From the UHGV virus genome UHGV-0864147: DNA of 39,187 nucleotides, one strand, 5' to 3'. The notes under the pieces are model-generated. The model ran no database searches, was not told where the DNA came from, and worked only from the letters and a program-made list of their open reading frames with translations. Both the position numbers and the translations under genes were made by a program. Numbering within the stretch: the stretch's first letter is position 1; the number at the start of each line of letters is the position of its first letter. Of the stretch, positions 5,603-39,187 are shown one piece after another. This DNA is from a virus.

Positions 5603-5663
5603 CTTTACCCTCGCTTATCCACATAACTTATTGATTACATTGATAACTAAAAAGATCGTCGAT

Positions 5664-8477: not shown

Positions 8478-9062
8478 ATGAAAAGTATCCAGGACGTCCG
8501 CAGGCAAAATCTCAACGACTTGATCGACCGTGAATTCAATGGTGTTCAGACGCGGATGGCAGAAAAACTTGGAACTCAGGCAAATCTGGTAAACCGCTGG
8601 GCTCTTGGCAAGAAGGTTATCGGCGACCAGGTTGCGCGAAAAATTGAAGCTGCCGCCAATAAACCCCGTAACTGGCTTGATATCGATCGCTCGCTTTCTC
8701 AGGAAGGTTTTCAGCCTGTCGGCCCAAGCGACATTGGTCAGCTGGCGGCTCACAACCTGGAACGCTGGATGAGCGAAAGCCGCGACCTTTCAACACAGGG
8801 AAAACTTCACCGCGCATCCGGCGTCGCCCAGGTGACAATCAGCCGCCTGTTAAACAATGAGGTCAGCGTTTCCATTTCCACCCTGGAGAATGTTGCATCC
8901 GCATTCGGGCGTCACGGCTATGAATTACTGATTCACCCGCACGACCCTGCGACCATCAACTATGACCGCTCGCGCTACGCATTGTTACCCGAAACCGAGA
9001 AAGCAAAGATCGAAAGTTACATTGAATTTGTCATCAACCAGAACGAAAAAAACAAACAATAA
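8478..9062 (+). CDS. prophage repressor, two HTH domains, no S24 peptidase domain
   Basis: 194 aa; two XRE-like HTH segments; located at cI position; followed by strong terminator. Confidence 0.55.
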   Translation: MKSIQDVRRQNLNDLIDREFNGVQTRMAEKLGTQANLVNRWALGKKVIGDQVARKIEAAANKPRNWLDIDRSLSQEGFQPVGPSDIGQLAAHNLERWMSESRDLSTQGKLHRASGVAQVTISRLLNNEVSVSISTLENVASAFGRHGYELLIHPHDPATINYDRSRYALLPETEKAKIESYIEFVINQNEKNKQ

Positions 9063-12970: not shown

Positions 12971-14221
12971 TTATTCCCCCGCCATCCACTTCTCAAACTT
13001 CGACGGGGAGAACGGAATCAGATCCGTATGCTCCCCGTTAATCCAGGAATCAATCATATCGGCCCACTGCTGCAACATGTAGGCGCGCTGTCTGGCGTAT
13101 TCCGCTTTGTTATATACGGCGCGCACACCTTTCTGCTCATGTGCCAGAGCCTTTTCAATCCAGTCTGAAGGATAACCAGCCTCATGCAACAACGTACTGG
13201 CTGTACGGCGCATATCGTGTACGGTGAAGCCCTGAATATGCTCACCATCTTCATTTATTATTTTCACCGTTCTGTCGATCAGAGAGTTCAGCGCGGCATT
13301 AGATAATGGCTTCCGGAAATTGTAACGACCAGGAACCAGATATTCACTTCCACCAGCGCACATCTGCAACCCAACCAATATATCCTGTGCCTGTTTAGGC
13401 AGGTAAATAACGTGCGCCCGGCTTCCCTTCATGCGGTCTGAAGGAATTGTCCATGTCCATTTTTTAAAATCTATTTCATCCCACGTTGCATTGGTGAATT
13501 CGCCTTTACGAACCATAGTGATAAGCACCAGCTTTAAAGCCATTTTCATAGTGCCCATAGCACCAATGGCATCCAGCGTGCGGAAGAACAGGCCAATTTC
13601 TTCTGGTGTCAGTGTTCGCTCTCGTGGTTTAAATATGGCGATAGACGAAGGTTTAATGTCAGCCGCAGGATTAAACAAACCATGACCACGGTCATTGGCG
13701 TGACGGTATACGCTGCTGATGATCTCCCTGGCCTGTACTGCTGTTGCCCGACCACCGCGTTCGACAATCCGGTCACACAAATCACGAACCATCGATGTGG
13801 TAATTTCAGCCATCATTTTGTTGCCAAGAACCGGAAGTATGTCACGGTCGATCACCGCCTGCTTCATTGCGCGGGTACTGTCAGCCAGGATGACGTGTTT
13901 CATATAACTGTCGGTATGTACCGCAAACGTCTCGGCACCACGAATCTTTTTGATACCGTCACGTTTAGCCGCAGCCGGTGACTGGCCTGCTTTAAGCAGC
14001 TTCTTTGCAGCAATCAGTTCTTCTCGCGCTTCTGCCAGGCTGATACCGTCACGCCCATACTGCCCGATTACCAGTGTTTCGCGGCGACCGTTGATACGGT
14101 AGTCATAGCGAAACGAGACCGTGCCTGACGTAAGCACAGCTACATACAGCCCGTCACGGTCGGAGACCTTGTACAGTTTGTCCTGCGGCTTGAGGTTTTT
14201 TAATTTTGTATCGGTAAGCAC
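12971..14221 (-). CDS. int: tyrosine integrase
   Basis: 416 aa; conserved C-terminal tyrosine-recombinase residues (R...HDMRRT...Y) recognisable; GTG start. Confidence 0.85.
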   Translation of the reverse strand: MLTDTKLKNLKPQDKLYKVSDRDGLYVAVLTSGTVSFRYDYRINGRRETLVIGQYGRDGISLAEAREELIAAKKLLKAGQSPAAAKRDGIKKIRGAETFAVHTDSYMKHVILADSTRAMKQAVIDRDILPVLGNKMMAEITTSMVRDLCDRIVERGGRATAVQAREIISSVYRHANDRGHGLFNPAADIKPSSIAIFKPRERTLTPEEIGLFFRTLDAIGAMGTMKMALKLVLITMVRKGEFTNATWDEIDFKKWTWTIPSDRMKGSRAHVIYLPKQAQDILVGLQMCAGGSEYLVPGRYNFRKPLSNAALNSLIDRTVKIINEDGEHIQGFTVHDMRRTASTLLHEAGYPSDWIEKALAHEQKGVRAVYNKAEYARQRAYMLQQWADMIDSWINGEHTDLIPFSPSKFEKWMAGE

Positions 14222-14365: not shown

Positions 14366-14515
14366 TTGAGTTAGCATCTGAATAGGAATGATTTGCTATG
14401 AGTTAGCTGTTAATCATTCCCACTCAATTATTTACGGATACCATAACCAATTGATTGATAACAACTTTCTGCAACATGATTTTTACCGTACCGTTTTATA
14501 TACCGTCACCGGAAA

Positions 14516-19609: not shown

Positions 19610-19877
19610 ATTTACATCGCACTCCTCTTGTGCCATAGTAATCGGGCACTGGCAAAATCCAGTGCCGGGATTGGTCTCCCGGATTACTACAGAGGCACAT
19701 ATGCCGCATAAGCGGTTTTTTTTATGTGTAAAGCGCACCTATTCTATGGTGGGCTGTGTGGGGGCACCGAAAGGTGCGCCGGGTTCCTTTGTAGCCGGTA
19801 AGACCAACTCTGCACAGTTCACCACCATCTGATTGGTCTCAGCGGTGGTGATTAACCTAACTACAAAGGTGATCGCC
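19610..19877 (+). ncRNA. structured leader / candidate regulatory RNA upstream of ant
   Basis: Hairpins at 19646-19665, 19665-19682, 19704-19715 plus U8, 19764-19777 (GAAA loop), 19819-19851; CCTTTGTAG (19786-19794) complementary to ant SD region (19861-19869). Confidence 0.3.
19704..19723 (+). terminator. weak terminator/attenuator in ant leader
   Basis: CCGC ATAA GCGG followed by eight T. Confidence 0.35.
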
Positions 19878-20570
19878 ATGAATACCAAACCTTCCATCTT
19901 TTCCTTTGAGTCATCCTGCCAGATCCGTATGTTCATGATTGACGGAGAACCTTGGTTTGTCACCAAAGATGTGTGCAATGCTTTGAATATTGATGTTACA
20001 CAAGCGAGAAAACTTGATAAAAAAGGCTGGAACAAAAAGGGGCTGTATTCAATACAGACCCCTGGTGGAATACAAGAACTATCCATCGTTTCAGAATCAG
20101 GTCTCTACATCCTTATTCTGCGTTGCAAAGAGGCAATGACTGAGGGAACGAGAGCATTCAGATTTCTTGAATGGGTTACAGGCGAGGTTCTTCCTCAGAT
20201 CCGCCGCACCGGAAGTTACATTAAAAACTCGCTACCGCAGGAAGAACGCATAAAGATGGTTGCCGACCAGGTAGCCAACGCCACGGCGTCAGCAGTAATG
20301 CAGGCGATGAAGATAGAGAACAAAACCTACAACGCCCCGCTGAAGCCCGGCTACCGCAGCCTGATTCATTCCCCGTCTGGTGTTCTCGGCCTGACGGAGA
20401 ACTCACTGCTGATGAATCTGCTGAACCAGTTACAGGAAGACGGGCACGACGTATCGGGCGCGGCGGCGGAGCTGACCACCATGTTCTGCTACATCGTCGG
20501 TGTGAGCAAATGCCTGCGTGATATCCAGACGCACGCGGAGTACATCAACGACAAGGCTGGGTTCTTCTGA
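19878..20570 (+). CDS. ant: antirepressor (Bro-N N-terminal domain)
   Basis: FSFESSCQIRMFMIDGEPWFVTKDVCNALNI and GLYILILRC / VLPQIRRTGSY Bro-N signatures. Confidence 0.8.
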   Translation: MNTKPSIFSFESSCQIRMFMIDGEPWFVTKDVCNALNIDVTQARKLDKKGWNKKGLYSIQTPGGIQELSIVSESGLYILILRCKEAMTEGTRAFRFLEWVTGEVLPQIRRTGSYIKNSLPQEERIKMVADQVANATASAVMQAMKIENKTYNAPLKPGYRSLIHSPSGVLGLTENSLLMNLLNQLQEDGHDVSGAAAELTTMFCYIVGVSKCLRDIQTHAEYINDKAGFF

Positions 20571-20779: not shown

Positions 20780-21319
20780 GTGTTAAGTGAAGAAATGCAA
20801 TTTGCCATGGCTGTGGCTCAAATCGTAAGTGCAGTCGCGGTTTCGCTTGGCTTGTTCATAGCTATCGCTACTATTATTTATAATGTAAATACAGCGAGAA
20901 AAGTACACACTTCAGTATTCCTTGGTGAAAGCAGGTTTGATGTAGATTATAAGAAAGGCCTATCTACTATGCGCCGCATTCACGAATCGAACAAATCATT
21001 CCGCTCTTATATGTATCCAAGCAATGGGCAGGCTGATCTTACGGATGAAGAAAAGACAGAGAAGAGAGAAATAATTTACTGTCTAGGTTTCTACGAACGC
21101 ATGGCTGTGAGCGTGAAGCGGAAAACTTATGATGAGACCATGATTAAGGAAGTATTTTACAGCTCCGTTGTAAATAACTATCAGATTGCGCTACCTCTTA
21201 TACAAGCCATTAGAGAAAAAGAAAACATAAACACATATTTTAAAGAATATGAATGGTTGGCCACACGATGGAAGGATTGCCCATTGAAGGATAAATCCCC
21301 GTGGTACAAGTTTTGGTAA
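20780..21319 (+). CDS. AT-rich moron: single-pass membrane protein of unknown function
   Basis: 179 aa; N-terminal TM helix; own promoter-like region and terminators on both sides. Confidence 0.5.
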   Translation: MLSEEMQFAMAVAQIVSAVAVSLGLFIAIATIIYNVNTARKVHTSVFLGESRFDVDYKKGLSTMRRIHESNKSFRSYMYPSNGQADLTDEEKTEKREIIYCLGFYERMAVSVKRKTYDETMIKEVFYSSVVNNYQIALPLIQAIREKENINTYFKEYEWLATRWKDCPLKDKSPWYKFW

Positions 21320-22098: not shown

Positions 22099-24573
22099 TT
22101 ATTGCGGAGTGACATCCTGAGGTCGCCACCAGTATGTCTGGTTAAACTCTTTCTTCGAACGTTGCTCCATTTTACGCAAATAACCTGGTGAAAAATACTC
22201 CTGCATCTGGTTAAAGATCATGTGATCGAGAGCCGCCTTTAAGTACCAGAGATTCGCACCTGGCATCAGACCTTTCCCCAGCTTGACCAGATCACCACCA
22301 GTCTGCTCATTCTTCCCTTCCACAGCATTTAACGGTATGCCCTGAGCAATCTTCACTACGTCATCAACCAGACCAGCTACCGGGCCAAGCATCGACGCCA
22401 GCGCGCCGCTTCCGTACCTAGTGTGATCTGACAATAAAAAGTCACCGTAAAGGCCAAGACCACCACCTTTCAGTAGAGCACCAAGCCAAAATTTAGCAGC
22501 ATCTTCTCCTGTCATCTCACGAGGATTACGACCAGACGCAAGGTCGTTAAGTTGCTGCGACAAAGCGCCAAGAATGGTCGTACTGGCAATAAACGTCGCA
22601 ATATATGCCGCACGCCCACCAGCAGACGGCATACCCATAGCGCGTGACCAGTGACGCATAACCACCGAGATAGGGAACGATTTAAACAGGAAAACACTTC
22701 TCGTTAATTCACCTTTCCATGTTCCACGCTGAATACCAGAACCGGTTATCAGTTGCTCACGTGCTCCCGGTGTAATAACAGCCATATCAACTTCTTCAGT
22801 TACGGCACCGAGCAGTTTACGCATTGCCTCAAATTTCACGCGTTCAGGCTCACCAAGATGTTTAACTGCTGAATCAGGGATACGCATAATGCTTTCCGGT
22901 GTCAGCATCGTATTATTACCGTTCCCCCAGTCCTCCTGTTGCGCCAGCTTCCATACGCTCCAGTCTGTGTCAGTAATTCCTTTGCTTTTCAGGATACGAA
23001 AATCAGAGTCATCGAGGCTACGAAGGTCTGGTGTCCGTGACACTACTTCTCCCAGGCTTCCCATCATGGTTACGCCATAGGCGCGCTTGTGCGCATCTGA
23101 CCATGCTGTAAGCCCACTGGCACGCATTACCGCCGTTGCCGCCCAGCGAGACACTGACGGCCCCATATTATCCATCGCCCAGCGGTTAACGCTGCCAAGT
23201 AGAGATTCCATCGCCAGACCAGCGCGGCGCGCCCGCGCAAGTTCTGTACGGTTCGTTGGGTCCATAGCTTCAAGCTGGTTGCGGAATAACTGGTTCATTG
23301 GAAGGTTGGTAACCTTCGCAGACAGATACATGGTTCCAAGATCAGAGAACGATGACAGCAACGCGGATCCGAGTCTGCTGGCAACCAGCCAGTTGCGGAT
23401 ATTGTCAGACCATCGCGCGATGTGCGGATTTGCTACAGGCTGTGTCTTTCCGGAAATAAAGTTGTACAGATTCTCTGTGTTGTTCGCCAGCCGCTCGACT
23501 TTACCGGTTTTACTCGGGTTAGCTGTTGCCGTTTCTGCCTTCACCTGATCAAGAAGAGAGCGGAAAACATGATCTGGGTTTGGGCCATATGTTTCCACCA
23601 GTGCAATATCTTTACTGATACCTTCCAGGTGACCGACCATGATTTCCCATAGAGAGCGATCGCCATAAAGTTGCTGATATTGCAGATAGGAATCTGCATC
23701 TTTGAAATGTATCTGTCGTGATGCATTACCACGGTTAGCACGTGCGCCGGAAATTCGCATTCCGGTATCAGTAAGCTTATTCAGCCCACCAGTAGCGATC
23801 GTGTTATAAGCCTCTCCAAGAAATGCAGACAACTCGGCATCGTTCATCAGTTGTCCATCGGCTCGGATATAATATTTGCGATCCAGCTTACCTATAACAT
23901 CGCTAACCCACTTATCCTTTGATACCGCCCCAACCTTTTCCATAGAATGATGTTGAGGGATCCCCCAGTTTTCGAGATAGCCAATGTCCCCGCCAGCATC
24001 ATTAAACCGGCGGCGCAGTAGATCTGTCACTTCTCTCCACGCCTTAGCACCTTTTCTTGCTTTAGCATTGCCAGTATTTTGTCCTCGCATTTCATATACC
24101 AGGTCACGCACGCCAGCTTCATCTTCAAACAGGCCAAAAAAGCGAGGATCAACTGCTTCAAATGCCTCCTGCAATTGACTCAATGCATAATCACGAGTGG
24201 CTTTTGTTCTGGACTCAACAGAGAGGAAATTCGATTTACCGTCTGCATTAAAAGCAATAGTACGGTTAAGAGCGCCAAGTTTCCCATCAGCCCCTTGATA
24301 GCTATTGATAAATTTATCCAATCTCTGACGTGCGGCTATAGTGAGGGCCACACGACGTTTCTTTAATGCCGCTTCTCGCTGTAATTCTTCAGATGCCAAT
24401 TGTGCTGCTCGATATAGCCGCTCTGATTCGGAAAGTTGTCTCCACGACATCGGGTCATCACGAGCAATGGAGCGCATATTTCGATAAATGCGGTCTTCAA
24501 TGTTCTGTATTTCTCGCGCCGTTAACGTGCGCTGCGCCGCCTGCTGAACCGCTTGTATACATTCCTGTCTCAT
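22099..24573 (-). CDS. large virion protein (internal/ejection protein candidate)
   Basis: 824 aa in structural operon. Confidence 0.5.
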   Translation of the reverse strand: MRQECIQAVQQAAQRTLTAREIQNIEDRIYRNMRSIARDDPMSWRQLSESERLYRAAQLASEELQREAALKKRRVALTIAARQRLDKFINSYQGADGKLGALNRTIAFNADGKSNFLSVESRTKATRDYALSQLQEAFEAVDPRFFGLFEDEAGVRDLVYEMRGQNTGNAKARKGAKAWREVTDLLRRRFNDAGGDIGYLENWGIPQHHSMEKVGAVSKDKWVSDVIGKLDRKYYIRADGQLMNDAELSAFLGEAYNTIATGGLNKLTDTGMRISGARANRGNASRQIHFKDADSYLQYQQLYGDRSLWEIMVGHLEGISKDIALVETYGPNPDHVFRSLLDQVKAETATANPSKTGKVERLANNTENLYNFISGKTQPVANPHIARWSDNIRNWLVASRLGSALLSSFSDLGTMYLSAKVTNLPMNQLFRNQLEAMDPTNRTELARARRAGLAMESLLGSVNRWAMDNMGPSVSRWAATAVMRASGLTAWSDAHKRAYGVTMMGSLGEVVSRTPDLRSLDDSDFRILKSKGITDTDWSVWKLAQQEDWGNGNNTMLTPESIMRIPDSAVKHLGEPERVKFEAMRKLLGAVTEEVDMAVITPGAREQLITGSGIQRGTWKGELTRSVFLFKSFPISVVMRHWSRAMGMPSAGGRAAYIATFIASTTILGALSQQLNDLASGRNPREMTGEDAAKFWLGALLKGGGLGLYGDFLLSDHTRYGSGALASMLGPVAGLVDDVVKIAQGIPLNAVEGKNEQTGGDLVKLGKGLMPGANLWYLKAALDHMIFNQMQEYFSPGYLRKMEQRSKKEFNQTYWWRPQDVTPQ

Positions 24574-24578
24574 TTAAT

Positions 24579-26381
24579 TTAACCTCTCAAGAAACACGCC
24601 ACAGCGACATCAAACAGGCTGGAATCCTGTATTGCCTGCTCACTTTCCATGTTCGCTTCATCCAGTACTTCACGCGCACTGCGCGATTGTGGATTACCAT
24701 CATCATCCAGCACGGTGATTATCATGTCAGGTGATTCAAGCAGCGAGTCTTCAGCTATGCGCAGATCAATATCTCCTGCCGGATCTGCCATCATCTTTTG
24801 TTCTGCCTGTTGCAATATCTTACCGGGCTCAAAAGGAGCTACTTCGTCTGGCGTCCTGACCTCTGCTGTTTTATAGAATGAAACAGCCTGAGCATTAAGT
24901 TCACTTTCAGCCTGCTGTCTCCGTGCCAGTTCTGCTCGAGCTTCAAAAAACTGACCGCCAGGCTCATGCGGTGCCAACACGTTACGGGAAAATTCCAGGC
25001 GTTCTTGTGCCTGCCGGATTCGTTGGTCAATATCGCGAAGTCTGGCCTGTTTATCTGATCGAGCACGAGATAAAGCCTTACCGCTACCGGTTGGCTCTTC
25101 TGCAAGAATTTGTGCGCGCTGTTCAGTGAGATTTTCAATAATTCGTTGGCTATTAGCGATTTCAGACTGGTAAACCTGTCTATCGCCACGCGACAAAAGC
25201 TGCGCGGCCTGTTCTTCAAGCAACCGATTTTCTATAGCGCGCGCCGTTACTCCATCATCTACAGATGACAGAGCCTCATTAACTGCCTGAGACAGCAGAC
25301 TCTTGCGCCCAGGAATTTCACTGAAAGATGCAGACTCAACAATGCTGGCAACGTCTACAGGTCTCCCCTGGCTAACATCAGACATGGCTTTTCGCAGAGC
25401 CTGAATGTGCGAATTACGCGAAAGCACGTTGATCGGAACGCCGGGAGCAATATCAATTTCAGCATGATGAGCGGCATTCGCCGCCAGTGCAGCATCAATA
25501 TCAACTGGTGAAAAATTTGGTGCGCTTGTAGACTCGCCGCGAGAGTTAATAAATCTGCCGACACCACCAAACGCCACCCCAAGAACAGCATCAATAGCAA
25601 TTGCCTGTCGATCCAACACATCATACTGGTTAGCCATTTCGCTATAGCCACCATCACGAAGCGTTTTTGCAGTAAGCCCACGCTGTGCCATACCGAACGC
25701 AATATTTGTACCTGCGGCATAGGCAATATCTGGCGTTGCACGTACTGCTGTTGCTGCGGCGCGTCGCACTGAACTTTCACCCGTCCGCGCAAGCTGAGCC
25801 GCCACACCTTCCGCCAGCGCACCACCAGCACGTAACCCGAGGCTCATAGGGATCAGTGTTCCGGCACCAGCAGTAATACCCTGCACTAATCCCGCTTCCT
25901 GCGCCGTCCTGAAATCAACACCCTGTGCTGTCAGCCGTTCAAACTCAGAAAAACCCTGTAGAGAAGTTACCGCCGCAGCACCTCCGACCGGACCACCGAG
26001 CGTTGTACCGACAACAGCCTGCCCGCCCATATCGAACAACCCATAAAGGACCTGCCCGGCTGTTCCGGTTGTCGCGGCATCAGGCGTCAGCCGCTTAACC
26101 TGCTGCTCTGCTAGTTTTCTCTGCTCAGCAATGTATGAAACTGAAGTGTCATTGAGCGAGGTGTTTTCGTTAACAAGCTGAGCAATCGGGGATACGATTT
26201 TATCCATCCCTGCCCATAGCAACTGATCTGGCTTTGCCACCAGCCCGGAGTACAAACCAGACAATGCCGCTCCTACAGCATTGTCGAAAAAACCAACATC
26301 GCTGTTAAAGCCAGCTGGATTTGATGCTGCTTCGTCAAGCTGCTGATTCTGGTTTACTGGATTAAGGCCAAAGTAACTCAT
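24579..26381 (-). CDS. virion protein (Ala/Gly-rich, internal protein candidate)
   Basis: 600 aa in structural operon, coupled to neighbours. Confidence 0.5.
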   Translation of the reverse strand: MSYFGLNPVNQNQQLDEAASNPAGFNSDVGFFDNAVGAALSGLYSGLVAKPDQLLWAGMDKIVSPIAQLVNENTSLNDTSVSYIAEQRKLAEQQVKRLTPDAATTGTAGQVLYGLFDMGGQAVVGTTLGGPVGGAAAVTSLQGFSEFERLTAQGVDFRTAQEAGLVQGITAGAGTLIPMSLGLRAGGALAEGVAAQLARTGESSVRRAAATAVRATPDIAYAAGTNIAFGMAQRGLTAKTLRDGGYSEMANQYDVLDRQAIAIDAVLGVAFGGVGRFINSRGESTSAPNFSPVDIDAALAANAAHHAEIDIAPGVPINVLSRNSHIQALRKAMSDVSQGRPVDVASIVESASFSEIPGRKSLLSQAVNEALSSVDDGVTARAIENRLLEEQAAQLLSRGDRQVYQSEIANSQRIIENLTEQRAQILAEEPTGSGKALSRARSDKQARLRDIDQRIRQAQERLEFSRNVLAPHEPGGQFFEARAELARRQQAESELNAQAVSFYKTAEVRTPDEVAPFEPGKILQQAEQKMMADPAGDIDLRIAEDSLLESPDMIITVLDDDGNPQSRSAREVLDEANMESEQAIQDSSLFDVAVACFLRG

Positions 26382-28891
26382 TGCGGAATATCTCCGGAGA
26401 ATCTCTGACGCTTCTGTGTCAGATCAAGAACAACAGGAGAACCATCATCTTTCAGCAGATAACCAGTACCAAGTTTCACCAGGTACTGACTATCGCCGTA
26501 ACTTTGCAAACCATACTGACCAGGCGGTGTTTTTATCCCGGTGCCGACAACTTGTTCATTCCAAGCCTGATTAACCTGCTTATCGAATTGCTCTGCAGAC
26601 ATTCCCCACGGCAAAAGAACATTCCCCATTCCGTTATAGTCATGCACGCCACCTGTAGCTACGTTAACAGCCTGTTTCCAGATATCATTGTCAATTTCGC
26701 CTGATACCACGCCTTTTTTCGCCATCACACCAGCGTAATAGTCCTTTGCGATCTCGTATGCCATTGATGCCCCCTGAGCATCACCAGCAAATGCATCCTT
26801 CACCATGTCAGAAAACTCAAGGCGAAGATCAGCATCTTTAGGCATCGGAATACCTTTCGCGTCATCAGTACCTTTACGAGCCGCCGCGCCAGCAAGAATT
26901 GTCTGCGCAGCGGTTTCAGGAGACACGGAAACATCCGGATTAAACCAGTTTTTTTCTGCCAAAATACCACCAGGCTTGTCCATCAGTATCCCGGCAACGG
27001 CAGCAGATGGAGCGTTGGCACTGATCTGCTGTAGTGCTGACATATACACCTGCCCACCACCAGTGCTCTGCCTGATGGTATCGAGATATGCTGCCTGTTG
27101 GGAAACGGGCGCATCACGAAAGAAAACACCGATCTGATTGGCCTCGTCTTTGGAAAAGAACGTCAGTGGAGTGCCATATGACTTAGCAAGGTCACTGACC
27201 TGAGCAGCACGCAAGGCAACGCTCTGTCCAAAGTTATCCTTATTGCTCATGTCGATAGGCTTTGCCTGTCCGGCGGCAAGAGAGAACTGTACAGGATCAG
27301 CCTGTCTCTGCTTTATCACCTGACTTGCAGCCGACACAACGTTGTCATAAAGAGCGGCTCGTGCCGCATAACCCTCCCCTGTCTCACCAGTATCCGGGCG
27401 TAATTGCTCAACATATGCTGTAATGCTGCTTGTCGGCATGTTGCGGAAAGAGCCTATATACTGTCCGGCGATTTGCGTATTTCTGAACTCGGTATATCGC
27501 AGGTTTCCTTCTCTGACTCCATAAGCTGCAATAAAATCAGCCTCACCAGGTGGGTTAGGAAATTCAACGCCACGCATATACGCAGCTGTCGCATCGCGAA
27601 CCTGGCTGTCAATCATCGTTTTATATTCAGCCTGCTGCTGCCGACGCAGTTGATCCGCCTGTCGCATAAAACTTGCCTGCGCCTCAGGAGATGCCGCATC
27701 GAATGCTGCATTACCGGTATAGCGTTTGGTGTTGGTTGGAATTGTTGATAAACCAAGTGCTGCACTGACACCAGCAGTTAACTGCTGATCACTGTATGGC
27801 TGGCTACCGTTCTCATGATGGATAATGGCTGCACAAAGCGCCTTCAGGGTATCAGGATTAGATGCATCGAGAGGCTCATCAGCAGAAACGCCAAGTTGTT
27901 CGCACACTGCTTTGATATACGACATAGTGTCATTTTTATCAGTAGGCGGTGCCCAGCGATTAATTATCTCGCTGACGGTATCAATACCCTGCCTCTGATA
28001 CGACATCAGGTTCCGCCCTAATGCACGAATCCCGTGTTCAGGTGTTTCGAATTTAGCAAATCGACCATCATCACCGGTCTGGCCTACCCACGGATTGGTT
28101 TTGCTGTATTCGAGATTTCCTGGGTTATTGTTGCGTATGCCACGGGCACGCTCGGAAGAATCACTATCTGCTACAGCACGGCGAGCTCCAGCAGCAGTAT
28201 CACTTAACTCGCCATTACTTTGGATGAATGCGGTCGCATTGTTTGCCGACCACTGGGACAATGCTGCATCAGCAACCTTCTCTTTAAACTCGATTTTCTT
28301 GGCCTGGATTTGCTCGTCGCTCCAGCCATGCGCAATGCCGTAATCCTCAATTTGCTGGAAAGTTTGCTTATTAGCCAATACGTATGCGGCGTTGTCGCCA
28401 TACAATGCTGCGGCATTTTTACCATTGTTCAGCAGCGTCGCCTGAAACTGGCCTTCTTCGTAGGCATTTATTTGCCATATCTCGTGCCGCCCGGCCTGCG
28501 TAGTGAACTGAATGCGCTGCTGCTGCGCCTGCTGCATGAAAGCATTACGAGCCTGTTCATCCGGCAGCGACATAGCCAGTTGCTCGACCTGGGCATCAAA
28601 CTGCTGCGTATACTCCTGACCTTTTCCAATAGCATTTTTCCCTTTCAGGTTAAGCAAACCTGTTTCAGGGTTATTCAGCAGATCGCTGCTTATCTGACTG
28701 AGGTTAAGGGATGCCTCCTGTGCCAGAGCGATATTGGCACGCTGTTTTGCCTGACCAAAAACATCAATTGCCTCTGTCCCTGCCCGAACAAAAGCATCAC
28801 CAATACCTTGCTGAGAAAACGTCTGCAAGCCTGCTGACTGAACTCCACGACTCTCAACCTGACGTCCGGATACTGTTGGTACGACTGGCAT
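26378..28891 (-). CDS. large virion protein (internal/ejection protein candidate)
   Basis: Start ATG 28889-28891 overlapping upstream stop; about 837 aa. Confidence 0.5.
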   Translation of the reverse strand: MPVVPTVSGRQVESRGVQSAGLQTFSQQGIGDAFVRAGTEAIDVFGQAKQRANIALAQEASLNLSQISSDLLNNPETGLLNLKGKNAIGKGQEYTQQFDAQVEQLAMSLPDEQARNAFMQQAQQQRIQFTTQAGRHEIWQINAYEEGQFQATLLNNGKNAAALYGDNAAYVLANKQTFQQIEDYGIAHGWSDEQIQAKKIEFKEKVADAALSQWSANNATAFIQSNGELSDTAAGARRAVADSDSSERARGIRNNNPGNLEYSKTNPWVGQTGDDGRFAKFETPEHGIRALGRNLMSYQRQGIDTVSEIINRWAPPTDKNDTMSYIKAVCEQLGVSADEPLDASNPDTLKALCAAIIHHENGSQPYSDQQLTAGVSAALGLSTIPTNTKRYTGNAAFDAASPEAQASFMRQADQLRRQQQAEYKTMIDSQVRDATAAYMRGVEFPNPPGEADFIAAYGVREGNLRYTEFRNTQIAGQYIGSFRNMPTSSITAYVEQLRPDTGETGEGYAARAALYDNVVSAASQVIKQRQADPVQFSLAAGQAKPIDMSNKDNFGQSVALRAAQVSDLAKSYGTPLTFFSKDEANQIGVFFRDAPVSQQAAYLDTIRQSTGGGQVYMSALQQISANAPSAAVAGILMDKPGGILAEKNWFNPDVSVSPETAAQTILAGAAARKGTDDAKGIPMPKDADLRLEFSDMVKDAFAGDAQGASMAYEIAKDYYAGVMAKKGVVSGEIDNDIWKQAVNVATGGVHDYNGMGNVLLPWGMSAEQFDKQVNQAWNEQVVGTGIKTPPGQYGLQSYGDSQYLVKLGTGYLLKDDGSPVVLDLTQKRQRFSGDIPQ

Positions 28892-29436
28892 TATAATCCT
28901 CCGGGTAATCTGGTTCCTGCTGCTGCCCCGATTGGCGCAGGAGTGCTTTGAGTAAACGGACTCCACGTCCCACCAAACATCTGGTACGCACCGTATGCCT
29001 TCAGAGGCGCAGTGAGCAATGTTGTTGCTGCTCCCACATTCCCCTGTTTACGGGCTGAACTGGCTTCTGCTTTATAGTTGGCAGCCTGAACCTGATAACC
29101 GTAAGCCTCGCGTTGCGCGTTATTCACCGTCGTCAGCGAATCAAGAGTACCAAACTGGGCAGTGTCGCCAAATATATCCAGCGCGTTACCTGTAGATAAA
29201 TCAGCGCCGGTAGCCCCCATTGTCGCCGCCTGTGTACCAAGCCGCTGTCGGGTCTCTCTGCGCCGTTGCTCAGCTTCAGCGTTACCTCTGTTTATTGCAT
29301 CATTTGCCTGAGCTGTGGCTATATCTGCGTTCGCTTCTGCAACCTTCGAGGCATACTTTCCCTGTTGGTACTGGGTGTATGCCTGAATGCCACTCATGGC
29401 GAGCATTGCGCCACCAGCAATAACCGGATCGCACAT
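28891..29436 (-). CDS. virion protein
   Basis: 181 aa, Ala/Gln-rich, in structural operon. Confidence 0.45.
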   Translation of the reverse strand: MCDPVIAGGAMLAMSGIQAYTQYQQGKYASKVAEANADIATAQANDAINRGNAEAEQRRRETRQRLGTQAATMGATGADLSTGNALDIFGDTAQFGTLDSLTTVNNAQREAYGYQVQAANYKAEASSARKQGNVGAATTLLTAPLKAYGAYQMFGGTWSPFTQSTPAPIGAAAGTRLPGGL

Positions 29437-29900
29437 TATTTTCTCTCCATGTGAAATCTGTGGAAATTAAGACCAAGAGCACCATAAGGCGCGGCTTCTT
29501 CAAGCCTGAATCCAAGCCAGTGCAGCCATGCTTTGGCAACATGGTTTCGCTCGTCGACATAGTTTTCCAGGCGCGGATAAACTGCCAGCATCTGCTGCAA
29601 TACAGGGCGGCAGTGGCGAAGAAATGTCTTCTGATATTTTTCGATACGGCTGGTTCCGACCAGCCATGGCGTACCATTGCCACCGATCATTGACGCCGGA
29701 GATACGCCAAACATGGTTACCAGTTCTCCGTTCGCGAACCCTGACCAGGCCATAGTCGCAGTGCGAAGACCAACACGCAGCGCATCTTCGGTAGTCATCA
29801 GCGATACCGCATACAGTTCGTCAATATCAGCCTGACGAACATCCGGCAAAATCATCTGAAGATGCTCTTTGGTGGCGGGAATAATTCGAACATCGATCAT
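29436..29900 (-). CDS. virion-module protein
   Basis: 154 aa, ATGA coupling both sides. Confidence 0.45.
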   Translation of the reverse strand: MIDVRIIPATKEHLQMILPDVRQADIDELYAVSLMTTEDALRVGLRTATMAWSGFANGELVTMFGVSPASMIGGNGTPWLVGTSRIEKYQKTFLRHCRPVLQQMLAVYPRLENYVDERNHVAKAWLHWLGFRLEEAAPYGALGLNFHRFHMERK

Positions 29901-32371
29901 CAGAATCCCCCAACAGTAAGACGAGGAATAACGGCAAGAACAGACAGCGGCAACGGATCGAGCTGACGAATTTTTACACGTCCGTTTTTGCCCCAGTTAC
30001 TGTCCAGTTTCACTTCTACTTTTCCGGTAGCGTCATCAACAGGATCATCGTAGAACTCGAATTCACGCTGTGGATATTCGTACCATTTACCGCCGGGCGT
30101 AGTCGCCCAGATGCCGCGACTGGCATTCACAACAAGAGTAACGGACGGGATCACCTGTTTTTTGTCCAGCAGCGTTTCCTGTCCGTTAATGTTGATATCC
30201 AGTGTTTCGAATTCAGCAGTTATTGGCAGGCCGATGTGCACAACAGCCCCAGGTGATTCCAGCGTGACGGCACCTCCGGAAACCACTTTCTGTGGTTCCA
30301 CGTTCGCATCAGAGAGAATGTTTACGGTCTGGCCTTCAAGATGAGACAGGCCTCCAAATGTCCGGCGCGCCATCTGCCAGTTCGTGGTAGCCACATTCCT
30401 GAGGGATGGCGGGACGTTCCTGTTAGCACGAACCACTACAGCGGTATTGCTGGTTACAGAAATGATGTCGCAACGTAATTCTTTTGACACTTCATCGCCA
30501 GTATCAGGATCAGTTCCGGTATAAGGGAACTGTAGTTGAGCACCGACATCACTACTGGTGAAGTACGCACCACCAGAAACACTGATTGTATATTCCGCGC
30601 GGTAATCCCATTCGCCAGAACCACCAGTGATGATCATCGTTCTGTCAGACGTATTTCTTCCATCATAGCTAAGGCCAGAATCAACAAAGAAAGCATCTTC
30701 ATCGCTGGTAAATAAACGGCTGGACAGTCGCTCGATGTATCTCACTGTTTGCCCGTTAACGGTTCGGTTAACGACGAAATACACCGCATCTTCATTGCCT
30801 TCGCTGATACTGCATGTGCTTTCATATTTTCCGGTACTGGATTGTGGTGCCCATGCAAAAACCTGCTGATCACGCAAATAGGTCATCACCAGTAATTTAC
30901 CGTCATCACGAATGCAGAATGCGCTGGAGTAAGGAACAATCGAGAAGCACCAGTCAACAATGCTGTGCTTCTGAAAAAGATGATTGGCAAGGATGGTCAG
31001 GTCGTTCCCCTGATAGCCGTCAACATCGAATGAGTAGGCCAGATCACGGACAACACTGCCTTTCTCTTGGACGAACAGAGCAATATTCGCTACGGCAATT
31101 GGTGGGACATTACTCGAGCCATTTGATCCCTGAGAGCTGAATGCAAATGATGATGGGGTTAACACTTTGTTCTGGTCGCCGGTGATGACGTACTCACCTC
31201 CGGAAGTCAGCGCCACCAGAGAACCAACATCAATCAGGTGACGGATCTCATTAACCTGATGCCCGGCATAGGTGTAGATAATTCTGTCGTCATCCTGCGT
31301 AGGATTGCTTTTGCCAAAATCCTTATAATCCCCGGTACGGCTGGCCCAGATAGTCTGAGGGAACGCAGTCGATGCGGCGAAGTAAAGACGTTGTTGATAA
31401 TAAACAACAGTGCCAGGATAACCATTAACACTGTTCCAGGCATATTTAGCCCATTTATAGCTGGCATTATCCTCGCCCACGACCTGCGAAGGGATATAGG
31501 AAATCACCTCGGCAGTTGCAGTAGTTCCATTTGCAGCAGTGATACGGGCAATGCCAAAACCACTGTGCAGATATTCCCACTCAATGCCAGTATCATCATC
31601 ACCGGATCCGCCCCAGCCATCCCATGATGTGCCTTCTGTATGCGAAGGGCGCAAAGTACCTGTTTTGCCTGCTGTAACGGCGCGATAGTAGTTACTGTCT
31701 GCACGGCGAATATCGCCAATCGACGTACTCTTACTGGTTTCCCATACCGGCACAGAATCCACTGCAGGCTGTTCCAGATAGAACAATTTGCCTGCCTGCT
31801 CCGCGCCAAAAATAGAGGCGCTTGCCGTTAACGTAATTGTCCCGGTGCTGGCGCTGGCATAAACCGTCACTGACTCATCAATATTGATATCTTCAAATGG
31901 CCCGTTCTTCGTTACCACATCAACCAGTTGCCAGTTGTCATGCGCATAGCGGCGCAGCTCTTTCGGCGGGTATGCCGGGTGAACCAGCGTAAGCACGTCG
32001 GCGCTTTGCGTGAATTTAATTCGGAACAGATCGGCTTCAGTATATGGCGTGGCAATTTCATAAATAACATTGCTGCTGTTCAGCACCAACGCACCATCTT
32101 TGATAACGCGCATGTACTGGTGTCCGAACTCCAGAGCATAGGTCTGAACCGTCGAGAACTGGAACGGGATCAGGCGGCATTTCCGATTTGGGTATTTGGC
32201 GGCACCGACAAAACGCGTACCAGGTCGATTCTCAACGCCGCCATACTGCCGCACGATAAAGTTATCGCACTTGCGCAATGCCACCTGGTACTTCGCCATG
32301 TCGATACGACCGTACAACGACGGTCCAATCTCACCACCGGCAAAGCTGGGCTGGATCCAACTGATAGCCAT
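29900..32371 (-). CDS. large tail/virion structural protein
   Basis: 823 aa; position and size comparable to podovirus tail tube protein. Confidence 0.5.
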   Translation of the reverse strand: MAISWIQPSFAGGEIGPSLYGRIDMAKYQVALRKCDNFIVRQYGGVENRPGTRFVGAAKYPNRKCRLIPFQFSTVQTYALEFGHQYMRVIKDGALVLNSSNVIYEIATPYTEADLFRIKFTQSADVLTLVHPAYPPKELRRYAHDNWQLVDVVTKNGPFEDINIDESVTVYASASTGTITLTASASIFGAEQAGKLFYLEQPAVDSVPVWETSKSTSIGDIRRADSNYYRAVTAGKTGTLRPSHTEGTSWDGWGGSGDDDTGIEWEYLHSGFGIARITAANGTTATAEVISYIPSQVVGEDNASYKWAKYAWNSVNGYPGTVVYYQQRLYFAASTAFPQTIWASRTGDYKDFGKSNPTQDDDRIIYTYAGHQVNEIRHLIDVGSLVALTSGGEYVITGDQNKVLTPSSFAFSSQGSNGSSNVPPIAVANIALFVQEKGSVVRDLAYSFDVDGYQGNDLTILANHLFQKHSIVDWCFSIVPYSSAFCIRDDGKLLVMTYLRDQQVFAWAPQSSTGKYESTCSISEGNEDAVYFVVNRTVNGQTVRYIERLSSRLFTSDEDAFFVDSGLSYDGRNTSDRTMIITGGSGEWDYRAEYTISVSGGAYFTSSDVGAQLQFPYTGTDPDTGDEVSKELRCDIISVTSNTAVVVRANRNVPPSLRNVATTNWQMARRTFGGLSHLEGQTVNILSDANVEPQKVVSGGAVTLESPGAVVHIGLPITAEFETLDININGQETLLDKKQVIPSVTLVVNASRGIWATTPGGKWYEYPQREFEFYDDPVDDATGKVEVKLDSNWGKNGRVKIRQLDPLPLSVLAVIPRLTVGGF

Positions 32372-35887: not shown

Positions 35888-36180
35888 TCCTGTTCACTGG
35901 CCTCTTTGGCCATCTTCAAATACTGTTCAGGGCAATGCGCCATAACGCGCTGAAACAGTTCCAGCGCCAGATTGCGTTGCCCCTCATTAAACGCCATTGC
36001 CATAGCGTCCATCGGTGAGATAGCGGAAAACACACGGCCTTTCTCCAGCACCGACCAGACAACGCGACGCCCCTGTTCACTGCTCATGACAAAGCGAATG
36101 TCATCAATTTCACGCTGCGCCATGTCACGTTGCTTACGGGCGTTTTCTTCTTTCAGTTGATCGTCTTCGTAATCTGTCAT
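35884..36180 (-). CDS. hypothetical protein
   Basis: 98 aa, coupled to portal and scaffold genes. Confidence 0.4.
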   Translation of the reverse strand: MTDYEDDQLKEENARKQRDMAQREIDDIRFVMSSEQGRRVVWSVLEKGRVFSAISPMDAMAMAFNEGQRNLALELFQRVMAHCPEQYLKMAKEASEQE

Positions 36181-37856
36181 TGTGATTGCCCACCCTGACC
36201 ACTAACTGCATTCGCCATAGCTGACAACACACTCGGATCCGAAGTTTTAGCTTCGCTTAGCGTCTTGGCACCCTGTGCCGCAGCCATCCCCATCGCCATC
36301 ATTTGTTGCTGCTGTTGCTGCTGTGCCCGTTGCTGGCGAGCCTGCTCAACCTGTTCCTGCGGAACAATGACGGTTGGAGACACTCCAGACATATCAGCGA
36401 ATGCATCGATTGCCTGATCAACGTTGAGTTTGTCGAGAGCTTCTGGTTTCGCTTGCGCAAGTTGACCAATGAAGTTGACCGTAGACGCCAGACTGGACAG
36501 GCCGATAGACTTCTGCGCCTGAGCCATGACGGAAATGTATTCGACCTTCAGGGGCATACCTTCCATCGCGTCAGGCGGGGGCGGCAGCATGTTTTTACGC
36601 ACCATCATCGAGAAAGAGCGGTCAATGAGAGGATTAAGACATTCGTCGTTCAGACGCTCCAGAACCGGCCCCAACATCAGAAGTTTTTCTTCTTTCATTT
36701 CGATCACCGCTTCAACAGGCATCGAGCGGGTATTGATGTTCTGCAACATCATGAACAGATCGACAAAGTAGGCGCTGTTAATGATTTGACGAGTGTCCTG
36801 AATGTCTGCCACCAAATCTGCTGTACTGGGGTTAACCAGATAAGCAGGCCTGAAGCCATCCTGACCAGTAATCTGATCGATATACGTGATGTCGCCAGGA
36901 AGAAGGGAGGCGCGCTGATTCTTGAGGGAAATCGGAGCAACCATCGGCGGATTGGTGGCTTTATCAATCAACTGCGACTTGCGCTTCTGGAGAAGCTGCA
37001 ATGCCTTAACAGGTCCAAGCGCCAGCATACCCGGGCATGATGATCCATAAACATCTTCGCCGTTAACTTCCCAGCGCGGAGCCATAATTGGAAACTCATC
37101 GAATCCGGACTCACGCAACAACCTGTCGTTATCGCCACCAACCTCGTAATAAACCGATTTGAATGGCTTGTTCTTGCTATCCAGCTTCGATGTATCGCGG
37201 TCAATGTTCGGGTAAACCGAATGCATCACTTCAATCCGCTTCTCGTAGGTGCCGCTTTCCCACATGCTTTTTACGGATTCGCTGACGTTATTTAGTCCGA
37301 ACTCCTGAACAAGCTGACGAACAGTCATAGAGAACTTGCGAAAACAGGTGTCCACACTGCCACGAGGTGAGTTAGCCAGGTAGTAACTTCCTATCGGGAA
37401 TGGCATTGTACGAATGATGTCCTCGTCATCCTCCAGCACCGCCATTGCGCCAGTGCTGTATGTGCCGAGGCTTCCGTATAACTGCGGCAGCGACTGATAG
37501 AGATTCGACTTATTGAACATATCGTTCATGCGGTTCTGCACCGCCTCAAGCCACAACTTAACAGGGCCATAATCCATCATTTCAGGATCTGGCGTAGCCA
37601 GGCGAAACCACGGACGCGCGGGGCTTGTGATGCCTGACATCATGCCGCTGGCGAGAGTGCGCGCCGCCATAGTCCCGGTCGAATCAATAATGCGTGTATT
37701 GCGTCGATCGTTACGGTTGACCTCAGAAGTCAGAAAGCGGGAACCACGCGGGTTGATGTAATCACTCAACTCGCGCCAGTGCGGCTCGAACGACTGACGC
37801 TCGCTTTCAAGTTGTGCGAACTGTTTGTTCAATCGCTCTTTAGTTGTTTCCGCCAT
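36177..37856 (-). CDS. portal (head-to-tail connector) protein
   Basis: 559 aa, first large gene of structural operon, Gln-rich C-terminal tail. Confidence 0.75.
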   Translation of the reverse strand: MAETTKERLNKQFAQLESERQSFEPHWRELSDYINPRGSRFLTSEVNRNDRRNTRIIDSTGTMAARTLASGMMSGITSPARPWFRLATPDPEMMDYGPVKLWLEAVQNRMNDMFNKSNLYQSLPQLYGSLGTYSTGAMAVLEDDEDIIRTMPFPIGSYYLANSPRGSVDTCFRKFSMTVRQLVQEFGLNNVSESVKSMWESGTYEKRIEVMHSVYPNIDRDTSKLDSKNKPFKSVYYEVGGDNDRLLRESGFDEFPIMAPRWEVNGEDVYGSSCPGMLALGPVKALQLLQKRKSQLIDKATNPPMVAPISLKNQRASLLPGDITYIDQITGQDGFRPAYLVNPSTADLVADIQDTRQIINSAYFVDLFMMLQNINTRSMPVEAVIEMKEEKLLMLGPVLERLNDECLNPLIDRSFSMMVRKNMLPPPPDAMEGMPLKVEYISVMAQAQKSIGLSSLASTVNFIGQLAQAKPEALDKLNVDQAIDAFADMSGVSPTVIVPQEQVEQARQQRAQQQQQQQMMAMGMAAAQGAKTLSEAKTSDPSVLSAMANAVSGQGGQSQ

Positions 37857-37870
37857 TTCAATGACTCCGG

Positions 37871-38077
37871 TTACTGACCAAGCAGCGTTTTACCGCTGGT
37901 ATTAGCGGTTGATGTGTCGCCCTGAGAACCGGTAAGCAGCGTAGAACTACGACCAGCAGCAGCGCGACGGCGACGTGTTTCTTCGTCGCGGGCATCAACA
38001 ACGGCGGCATCCTGCTCCTGTGGTGCTGCCTGAACTTCTGGTGTTGCAGGCACTGATGGTGAGCTACCCATGCACAT
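37871..38077 (-). CDS. hypothetical small protein
   Basis: 68 aa, GGAG 10 nt upstream of ATG; alternative overlapping frame 37858..38097 less likely. Confidence 0.3.
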   Translation of the reverse strand: MCMGSSPSVPATPEVQAAPQEQDAAVVDARDEETRRRRAAAGRSSTLLTGSQGDTSTANTSGKTLLGQ

Positions 38078-38145: not shown

Positions 38146-38182
38146 TTGACATTTAACGCGTGAATTATTACCTTTCAGGTAA
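38146..38182 (+). promoter_or_regulatory. TTGACA -35-like hexamer with TTACC-N5-GGTAA site 38168-38182
   Basis: Perfect operator-like repeat 17 bp downstream of consensus -35 hexamer; on same strand as tRNA. Confidence 0.4.
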
Positions 38183-38504
38183 CCAAAGAGCTCATTCTGG
38201 TTACTAACCTGACTGGCTTGTCGTTAAATTAAACAGGTGGAGTGAGCTTTTATTTTGAGCAGTACGGCGTATGGCACATGCGCCGATAGCGGTCTGGATA
38301 CGTTTAAGGGGCACCCTCCCTTGCTCGGGCAAACGAACCAGGTAGCCGGAATGTGCAAGTCGAGCGGTTTTATTCCGCGCACGGGGATTCACCATCCCGG
38401 CGATTCGGTGTGACGCCTCGGAAGAGACGAGGGTACAACGATGAGAGCATTTATGGAGCCGCGACAAAGTGTGGCGCCTTAACAGGCTAAGTGCTCTCAG
38501 CGTT

Positions 38505-38581
38505 GTGGCATTAGCTCAGTTGGACAGAGCAACCGCCTTCTAAGCGGTTGGTCGCAGGTTCGAATCCTGCATGCCACGCCA
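38505..38581 (+). tRNA. tRNA-Arg (anticodon UCU)
   Basis: 77 nt cloverleaf: acceptor GTGGCAT/ATGCCAC, D-arm GCTC..GAGC, anticodon stem ACCGC/GCGGT with loop CTTCTAA, T-arm GCAGG TTCGAAT CCTGC, encoded CCA. Confidence 0.85.
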
Positions 38582-38623
38582 GAATCACGCCTAAGGACCG
38601 TGATGCCAGAAGTTCCAGGTGCT

Positions 38624-38665
38624 TGGCGGTGATGGTTTCCCTTGAAGGACTATCACCGCCCTTTT
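38624..38665 (+). terminator. terminator downstream of tRNA
   Basis: GGCGGTGAT 18-nt loop ATCACCGCC followed by CTTTTT. Confidence 0.55.
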
Positions 38666-38744
38666 TACAGCAGGACGCCATTGCGATGACTTCATGCTGT
38701 AAACCCGTACAGCCACGGAAGGCATAACTCATTGCTTCCAGTTC

Positions 38745-38768
38745 GCCCGGTTCGCCGGGCATTTTTTT
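38745..38768 (+). terminator. intrinsic terminator
   Basis: GCCCGG TTCG CCGGGC followed by ATTTTTTT. Confidence 0.7.
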
Positions 38769-38784
38769 GCTTGATGACCGCAAA

Positions 38785-38802
38785 TTACCTTAAAGGTATA
38801 AT
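38785..38802. promoter_or_regulatory. TTACC-N5-GGTAT site overlapping TATAAT hexamer and SD of moron ORF
   Basis: 9/10 arm match; AAGGT within site sits 6 nt before ATG 38804. Confidence 0.4.
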
Positions 38803-38803
38803 C

Positions 38804-39187
38804 ATGAAAAACTTCAAGGTAATTAGCATGTTTGAATCGTTTAAAGAGCTGTTTTTATCTACTGCCAATACTGCCGTGAATCGAGCCAAAAACCCTGTGC
38901 TTGGTGCTTTTGTTATGTCCTGGTGCGCCTTCAACTGGAAATCAATTCTTTATCTATTTTTTAGCAAATCAAACATAATAGATAAAATTTCATATATCTC
39001 AGATAACAGCACATGGAAAACTGTTATGTTTTATCCATGCTTATCTGTAATTGCTATCTGCTGCCTATTACCATGGGTAAACAATATCATTAACGTATGG
39101 CAAGCAAAGCCTCTTGATAATAATCACTCAATCGAAAATCACCTGAAGGCAAGAAAAATCCAGCGTGAAACCAGACTGCAGAGGTTA
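38804..39187 (+). CDS. N-terminal part of AT-rich moron ORF (two predicted TM helices), open to window end
   Basis: ATG 38804 with AAGGT SD; 128 codons without stop to base 39187; in frame with ORF at 1..435. Confidence 0.4.
   Translation, partial: MKNFKVISMFESFKELFLSTANTAVNRAKNPVLGAFVMSWCAFNWKSILYLFFSKSNIIDKISYISDNSTWKTVMFYPCLSVIAICCLLPWVNNIINVWQAKPLDNNHSIENHLKARKIQRETRLQRL

Follow-up and report, generated by a model that had tools for sequence, protein, structure and literature searches.

Phage tRNAs that read codons rare in the host are a known and ordinary kind of gene. The closest described counterparts of the tRNA-Arg(UCU) considered here are argN/argO/ileZ of phage 933W and trnI/trnA/trnT of phage P1, which, like it, serve codons seldom used by E. 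coli and over-represented in the phage, belong to a phage operon, and lie away from the attachment site; the argO region of 933W matches part of our tRNA at 82.5% identity. Among host genes, the counterpart is argU, which has the same anticodon and the same length of 77 nt. Two further systems bear on the RNA surrounding the tRNA. The small RNA DicF, from the dicBF locus of prophage Qin, arises from a polycistronic transcript under repressor control, either through cleavage by RNase E and RNase III or by ending at the terminator (PMC5069750, PMC10448788), and in phage HK022 putL, a processive antiterminator RNA of ~70 nt, lies just downstream of pL.

The tRNA gene analyzed here lies in a 39,187-nt stretch of phage DNA (hereafter the window, meaning the whole stretch), and its place differs from those of its counterparts: it occupies the terminase–portal region of a podovirus, whereas the 933W genes lie upstream of stx and the P1 genes inside the ban operon, and its promoter is apparently under direct repressor control rather than late or Q-dependent. 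What is new is the setting, as the gene occupies a fixed slot within a leader RNA that is conserved and pseudoknotted, occurs in many temperate enterobacterial phages, and is probably repressor-controlled; we found no description of this RNA. With moderate confidence, we interpret the locus as a functional argU-type tRNA-Arg(UCU), cargo of a phiV10-like temperate podovirus, that would be released from an early lytic, repressor-controlled precursor and supplement the decoding of AGA and AGG.

The tRNA gene and the phage that carries it

ARAGORN finds a single tRNA in the whole window, a tRNA-Arg with anticodon TCT at 38505-38581 on the plus strand. The Rfam tRNA model (RF00005; gathering score 29) matches 38505-38578 with 73.3 bits (E = 2.4e-14), yielding a full cloverleaf with every stem paired, and positions 38578-38581 hold G-CCA, that is, the discriminator G and a CCA encoded in the gene. 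The features of a bacterial elongator tRNA are all present (stems of 7/4/5/5 bp, GG in the D loop, the T loop GTTCGAATC, a score above the threshold), and the UCU anticodon is placed as in argU, in a 7-nt loop with U33 and A37 whose sequence, CUUCUAA, is that of the argU loop. The tRNA lies in a non-coding island of ~730 nt between the large terminase gene and the portal gene, with head genes at one flank on the minus strand. The portal gene (36177-37856, minus strand) and a small gp3-like gene (37871-38077, minus strand) lie on one side of it, and a low-GC accessory ORF (38804-39187, continuing at 1-435, plus strand) on the other. Thus, the preliminary description, which had placed a complete 77-nt tRNA-Arg(UCU) with encoded CCA on the plus strand between the portal region and a moron, 24 kb from the integrase, was accurate on each of these points: both programs accept the fold, and the integrase gene (12971-14221, minus strand) is 24.3 kb away. 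The phage-carried tRNA-Arg(UCU) gene is real and intact.

The sequence of argU used for comparison is found at 100% identity, annotated as tRNA-Arg, in 5425 of 5426 E. coli genomes. The phage tRNA is identical to it at 64 of 77 positions, including the entire D arm, anticodon loop, T arm, discriminator G73, and CCA. Five stem pairs, three of the acceptor stem and two of the anticodon stem, carry compensatory exchanges (10 positions), and the unpaired differences are position 20a and two bases of the variable loop. The identity elements of ArgRS are A20, C35, U/G36, and A/G73; the phage tRNA carries A20, C35, U36, and G73, the same as argU. The 78 tRNA copies in the fetched loci represent 15 variants, in which most substitutions fall in the D loop or preserve pairing, two being double compensatory changes (C5U + G69A; C30G + G42C), and four singleton variants break a pair. 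The anticodon loop is invariant in all 78 copies, as are the ArgRS identity positions save for one G73A singleton. As judged from these sequences, this is the pattern expected of a tRNA under purifying selection. Based on the shared A20, C35, U36, and G73, the host ArgRS would charge the phage tRNA, and the host would modify it as it does argU. The two differ in context, argU being a host gene and the phage tRNA being part of a predicted long non-coding phage transcript.

The comparison with argU also bears on the possibility that the tRNA insures the phage against loss of host tRNA-Arg caused by anticodon nucleases, other tRNA-targeting defences, or host shut-off. Phage tRNAs are known from recent literature to provide insurance against tRNA-targeting defences, and the 10 stem and three unpaired differences could let this one evade a nuclease that reads the stems. 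However, the anticodon loop, the usual site of both attack and escape, is identical to that of the host, no targeting system specific to tRNA-Arg(UCU) was identified here, and relatives without the tRNA infect similar hosts, so that we regard insurance as an improbable function.

The region of the tRNA is 98-99% identical to phiV10, O157 typing phages 9 and 10, phiv142-3, ZX5, and PAS61, all from the genus Uetakevirus (epsilon15-like), and also matches prophages in many E. coli chromosomes. The ends of the window join inside one ORF of 272 aa, which starts at 38804 and continues at position 1; hence the window, by its sequence, is the circularly permuted whole genome of a phiV10/epsilon15-like phage, in circular or excised form, and not a prophage with adjacent host DNA.

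Many integrases target tRNA genes, and tRNA-dependent lysogeny reportedly exists in mycobacteriophages. The gene might accordingly be an att remnant, a target for other integrating elements, or the complement of a host tRNA disrupted by integration, an explanation that we find hardly credible for this locus. The attP core has been published, the attB site being the 3' end of guaA (PMC9782041). This core, ATTGAGTGGGAATGATT, occurs once in the window, at 14412-14428 on the minus strand, where it is intact and lies ~190 bp from the integrase gene and 24 kb from the tRNA. In strain CS6L, a nearly identical prophage adjoins guaA, with the tRNA deep in its interior, and the tRNA is found at the same place in the free phage genomes phiV10, typing phages 9 and 10, phiv142-3, and ZX5. 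Homology with phiV10 stops after the second terminator of the island (T2, ending at 38768), ~190 nt past the tRNA, and not at the tRNA 3' end. The position of attP, together with related prophages beside guaA, shows that the tRNA is cargo unrelated to integration, in line with what the preliminary description had maintained. The fragment of a host att site that it had named as the alternative is ruled out by the full length of the tRNA, its identity to argU of only 64/77, the location of attP elsewhere, and integration at guaA; the latter also rules out tRNA-dependent lysogeny by replacement of a disrupted host tRNA.

The tRNA gene itself is already known. Any match to it is seen in 508 of 5426 complete E. 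coli genomes, where it is annotated in RefSeq as tRNA-Arg, and in ~500 of the 5426 the identity is at least 95% over at least 80% of the 77 nt. Among phage records, those of typing phages 9 and 10 and of phiv142-3 carry the annotation as well, and one tRNA was reported in the paper on ZX5. The phiV10 reference record (NC_007804.2) lacks the annotation, and ARAGORN detects the tRNA there; in this record a hypothetical gene, PhiV10p04, is called on the opposite strand across the tRNA and its trailer (2672-2923 of the record; 5412-5663 of our extracted locus L003), which is probably a mis-annotation.

Promoter, operators, and terminators of the island

A candidate sigma-70 promoter, read from the sequence, is situated at 38146-38182 on the plus strand and consists of TTGACA (38146-38151), a 17-nt spacer, and TACCTT (38169-38174). 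A strict promoter scan did not call this candidate (38146-38174) because of the weak -10 hexamer TACCTT; it is kept in phiV10, epsilon15, and 65FD. The promoter scan yields no further candidate between it and the tRNA, which lies ~320 nt downstream and has no promoter of its own. The transcription unit of the tRNA is likely to start at about 38181.

The -10 hexamer is overlapped by a perfect operator palindrome, TTACCTTTCAGGTAA (38168-38182). Palindromes of this class, TTACCT-N3-AGGTAA (or ATTACC-N5-GGTAAT), have 18 matches in the window with at most two mismatches vs 0.87 expected, a ~20-fold excess, and are mostly intergenic, including the regions flanking the repressor gene (ORF 8478-9062); examples are the sites at 6015, 6077, 8408, 9120, 9182, 14264, 19215, 19595, 38168, and 38785. 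They correspond to the repressor sites in the annotation of epsilon15, which read ATTACC-N5-GGTAAT; one of those is at the homologous position and three are beside the repressor gene. Such a distribution suggests that the operators form a dispersed network, as they do for C1 of phage P1. From the sequence and the epsilon15 annotation, the phage repressor may be expected to bind the operator at 38168-38182, so the tRNA would belong to a repressor-controlled early transcript that is largely silent in a stable lysogen. Since the sole upstream promoter candidate is overlapped by a repressor operator, the tRNA signal in a lysogen may be low.

Another control element of the window, located away from the island, is a tandem of isrK (19646-19722, plus strand, 74.7 bits) and a C4 antisense RNA (19742-19829, plus strand, 78.6 bits), just upstream of a BRO-family antirepressor-like ORF (19845-20570). 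By sequence, the three constitute a predicted antisense control module of the P1/P7 immI type in a podovirus.

Downstream of the tRNA, the terminator scan identifies an intrinsic terminator, T1, with a DicF-like trailer (38606-38668, plus strand), comprising single-stranded CCAGAAGUUCCAGGUGCU, a stem at 38625-38660, and a U run. It is followed by a conserved 3' segment (38664-38768, plus strand) with a hairpin at 38664-38703 and then T2, with the stem at 38745-38760 and the U run extending to 38768. In phiV10 and epsilon15, the downstream gene (p03/p50) comes directly after T2, with only a ribosome-binding site between them, and hence must be expressed by terminator read-through. A private promoter of the accessory ORF at 38774-38802 is doubtful, as the annotated ATG at 38804 is directly behind its -10 hexamer. 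An operator-like palindrome at 38785-38799 overlaps the ribosome-binding region of this ORF.

The accessory ORF (the moron of the preliminary description) encodes 272 aa at a GC content of 0.36, and its product matches PHROG 4780 over the full length across the window junction; the function of PHROG 4780 is not annotated. The N-terminal part of the protein is hydrophobic and its C-terminal part has weak PADLOC matches to long coiled-coil (SMC-like) proteins, while a Pfam search with the N-terminal 128 aa, the only part searched, gave nothing.

The leader core and its slots

Between the candidate promoter and the tRNA lies the leader core (38257-38437, plus strand), ~180 nt long, which is the one window match, with 150 bits, of R1, a covariance model built from 23 sequences. 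All its elements are on the plus strand. They include hairpins at 38265-38285, 38384-38398 (loop UUCACCA), and 38416-38432 (loop GAAGAGA), a long-range helix of GCGGUCUGG (38289-38297) with CCGGAAUGUGC (within 38341-38359), and a pseudoknot of CACC (38390-38393) with GGUG (38407-38410). Outside the window, R1 matches 56 times in other loci; in epsilon15 it recovers a fragment only, and in Qin and HK022 nothing.

In an alignment of 54 distinct sequences, the consensus fold has seven helices, with 97.8% of cells paired and nine pairs changed on both sides; the alignment was fitted to the model and hence favours the structure. The covariation score is 0.223, compared with 0.136 ± 0.005 for shuffles (none of 500 reached 0.223) and at most 0.061 when the partners are slid. 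Covariation occurs mostly in the three hairpins, the long-range helices being nearly invariant. The varying pair of the pseudoknot is C-G in 48 sequences, A-U in five, and unpaired in none; a neighbouring pair is unpaired in two. The many G-U pairs indicate that the RNA is on the plus strand, and the plus strand of the island folds better than its shuffles (z = -5.5) and than the minus strand (z = -3.9). Searches of the 430-nt upstream region from the window and 14 related loci, at gathering thresholds and also at E <= 5-10, retrieved no Rfam family, the tRNA being the only match. A protein-coding leader is unlikely: none of the three frames stays open throughout the 23 aligned members, stop codons interrupt two or more frames in most of them, and the length differences among the variable hairpins are not multiples of three.

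The distribution of the core was established by scanning viral contigs for a 22-nt motif, followed by BLAST searches, and three settings were observed. The first is the terminase–portal island of Uetakevirus; here the non-coding sequence that flanks the tRNA is also present in epsilon15 and 65FD, which have no tRNA. In the second, seen in lambdoid-type phages (cdtI, Stx2c phages, several IMG/VR prophages, and one Stenotrophomonas phage), the core belongs to the early-left operon leader that comes immediately behind a gene for a cI-like repressor. In the third, it lies between trnI and ban in the ban operon of P1 and P7. Among species-representative genomes, an exact core 19-mer is found in Kosakonia, Citrobacter, Klebsiella, Enterobacter, Phytobacter, Kluyvera, Erwinia, Buttiauxella, and others. 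The same 19-mer occurs in two metagenome-assembled genomes labelled Oscillospiraceae and Bacillota (L147 and L159), of which L159 matches the whole core (179 bits); these are probably mis-binned enterobacterial prophage DNA.

One prophage of the second type, L014, with HK022-like pL operators, carries the core just downstream of pL, the place of putL in HK022, and terminators and then early genes follow. A search of E. coli genomes with a leader of the L014 type gave few matches, none of them annotated. By analogy with this putL-like position and the terminators behind it, the arrangement suggests a processive antiterminator. The core itself shows no similarity to the put element: its profile (nhmmer) produced only a 15-nt chance match in HK022, R1 has no match there, and the two differ in size (~180 nt vs ~70 nt) and in fold. 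The setting in P1 is also different, with the core 2.4 kb from the promoter and no terminator before ban.

The core is followed by a hairpin which we denote slot 1 (38435-38506, plus strand), an inverted repeat of 19 nt (89% complementary) with arms ACAACGAUGAGAGCAUUUA and UAAGUGCUCUCAGCGUUGU and a variable loop. The arms differ among relatives yet stay complementary, e.g., GUAGCUCACU/AGUGAGCUAC in a Klebsiella phage and GAGAGUAUU/AAGUACUCUC in locus L089, and the closing arms GAGAGCAUU/AGUGCUCUC covary between lineages. The 3' arm runs into a conserved GUUGUGG, which is at the same time the start of the tRNA. In relatives without the tRNA, GUUGUGG opens a variable domain of ~55-390 nt closed by GUUGUGGUG...CACCACAAC; with CCA frequently coming next, this closing stem looks like an acceptor stem and its 3' terminus. 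In phages of the phiV10 type, precisely this slot is filled by the tRNA-Arg (GUGGCAU...AUGCCAC-G-CCA), and so it is in L063 and L065, two lambdoid-type prophages that are unrelated. Downstream of it, a conserved hairpin, AUCACG...CGUGAU (38584-38604, plus strand), follows both the tRNA and the non-tRNA domains, with varying loops.

Other tRNAs are found beside the same leader. In P1 and in one further locus (L152), tRNA-Ile2(CAU) lies immediately 5' of the core. In Phytobacter ursingii (L161, 1186-1264; L141, 2210-2288), the slot itself holds a tRNA with CCA encoded (52.8 bits), whose acceptor strand is built of UUGUGGC and whose anticodon, AAU, is unusual and differs by a single base from that of tRNA-Ile2 (CAU).

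The region behind the slot resembles the dicBF locus of Qin. In both, a GUUGUGG-closed domain and then a terminator hairpin UUGGCGGU...CCGCCCUUUUU follow in the same order on a repressor-controlled early transcript (a predicted one in the window), and the sequences align; when the window is aligned with the dicF locus of Qin and with cdtI, T1 takes the place of the DicF terminator as its positional homologue, and the tRNA stands where Qin and cdtI have the ~115-nt domain located before dicF. In the window, the terminator hairpin of the trailer (38606-38668, plus strand) reads UUGGCGGU...ACCGCCCUUUUU. The loci also differ: Qin has the ydfABC ORFs instead of the leader core, with no R1 match, and the trailer of the window fails the Rfam model of DicF (RF00039, gathering score 48 bits), which has no match in the window at E <= 5, and differs from DicF over much of the hairpin region. 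The Klebsiella phage relative scores 18 bits with this model. The likeness of the trailer to DicF is therefore one of position and terminator stem, and is otherwise loose. Our literature search found no described link between tRNA-like domains and DicF.

This organization allows a reading in which the tRNA serves mainly as RNase P-cleavable punctuation, giving defined ends to the flanking RNAs (the core and the DicF-like RNA), with decoding secondary. It draws on the acceptor-like stem GUUGUGGUG/CACCACAAC, often with CCA, around the 55-390-nt domain in the same slot of relatives, on the use of the conserved UUGUGGC as an acceptor strand by the different tRNA of Phytobacter, and on the domain of Qin and cdtI directly preceding DicF or its homologue, given that DicF is processed from a polycistronic transcript (PMC5069750, PMC10448788). 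On the other hand, the published 5' end of DicF is made by RNase E and not by RNase P (PMC5069750), and the non-tRNA slot domains give no tRNA-like signal with either Rfam or ARAGORN. Moreover, punctuation alone does not require an anticodon loop and ArgRS positions identical to those of argU and invariant in 78 copies (but for the singleton noted above). We consider punctuation unlikely to be the main function, and it would be compatible with decoding in any case.

The core-tRNA-T1 arrangement in L063 and L065, with tRNAs 92 and 90% identical to ours, points in another direction: the tRNA could be a nearly neutral hitch-hiker of little benefit, gained by leader recombination with a tRNA-bearing early-operon leader of the lambdoid type, and relatives indeed do well without it. 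A neutral passenger is difficult to reconcile with a tRNA that is identical or nearly so in hundreds of genomes and with substitutions that mostly preserve pairs, including the double compensatory ones, and we assign this scenario a small chance. Under the interpretation that we prefer, that of a functional decoding tRNA, a defined slot in a modular leader RNA recombining between lineages would explain both the acquisition of the tRNA and its absence in some close relatives.

More generally, the core and its downstream slots could represent an undescribed modular family of structured RNAs from temperate phages of the Enterobacterales (plus one Stenotrophomonas phage), located at the heads of repressor-controlled operons. 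Its members may consist of the pseudoknotted covarying core, a hairpin slot, an acceptor-stem-like slot for tRNAs (the Arg-UCU one or an Ile-like one) or other domains, and a DicF-like terminator, and may act as processive antiterminators or as processing scaffolds setting the output of the tRNA, the small RNA, and the downstream gene. We put this forward tentatively, as a possibility with somewhat less than even prospects.

Codon usage and the role of the tRNA

Codons were counted in greedily called ORF sets of the phage and of a 50-kb stretch of the E. coli chromosome taken as the host sample. AGA accounts for 6.57 per 1000 codons in the phage vs 1.19 in the host sample (5.4-fold), and AGG for 4.30 vs 0.92 (4.5-fold). 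Relative to this sample, they are the top two phage-enriched codons, with ATA being third. AGA clusters in the genes of the tail and ejection proteins (22099-32371), in that of the low-GC tailspike (16504-19110), in some early genes, and in the accessory ORF, where it accounts for four out of eight Arg codons. The low-GC (0.36-0.39), AGA-rich genes of the window are the accessory ORF, 16504-19110, and 20780-21319. No AGA is found in the heavily expressed head genes, namely those for the large terminase, portal, protease, and major capsid proteins, which suggests that the most strongly expressed phage genes do not depend on the phage-encoded tRNA.

No tRNA is present at this locus in epsilon15, SPN1S, or Tyrion; the covariance model places the leader core there (a remnant in epsilon15). 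The AGA frequencies of these three phages are 4.2, 5.4, and 7.2 per 1000 codons, respectively, compared with 6.6 here, so that in this set of four genomes with greedily called ORFs the tRNA is not associated with a higher AGA load. Since relatives lacking the tRNA have similar loads, its presence does not follow the demand for AGA decoding, and the family can do without it. Thus, of the compensation for rare AGA/AGG usage that the preliminary description had proposed, the codon enrichment in the phage relative to the host stands, whereas the similar AGA loads of relatives without the tRNA and the AGA-free head genes speak against a need for it. Supplementation of the AGA pool is plausible, though unproven, as a benefit and not a necessity for this phage family. 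Rare-codon tRNAs also accompany the same leader elsewhere, as in P1, L152, and, with the CAU-like AAU tRNA, Phytobacter.

Taking all this into account, the functional decoding tRNA that we favour would operate as follows. Transcription would start at the operator-overlapped promoter (38146-38182), mainly once the repressor is inactivated, during early lytic growth, and would yield a primary transcript of ~590 nt comprising the leader core, the slot-1 hairpin, the tRNA, the post-tRNA hairpin, the DicF-like T1, and T2, with terminator read-through feeding the downstream accessory gene. RNase P would cut the 5' end of the tRNA, and host endo- and exonucleases would trim the transcript to the encoded CCA. 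Charged by the host ArgRS, the phage tRNA would then add to the scarce host pool of tRNA-Arg4, which reads AGA and, less well, AGG, the two codons that the phage over-uses most, mainly in its tail, ejection, tailspike, early, and accessory genes.

Through the phage repressor, the tRNA is thus apparently turned on when the early lytic genes are, and the slot that holds it is prone to recombination. If the leader controls read-through or processing, the exchange and co-regulation of tRNAs, small RNAs, and accessory genes among many enterobacterial prophages would be accounted for, and the locus would be a concrete example of a tRNA that forms part of a larger regulatory RNA.
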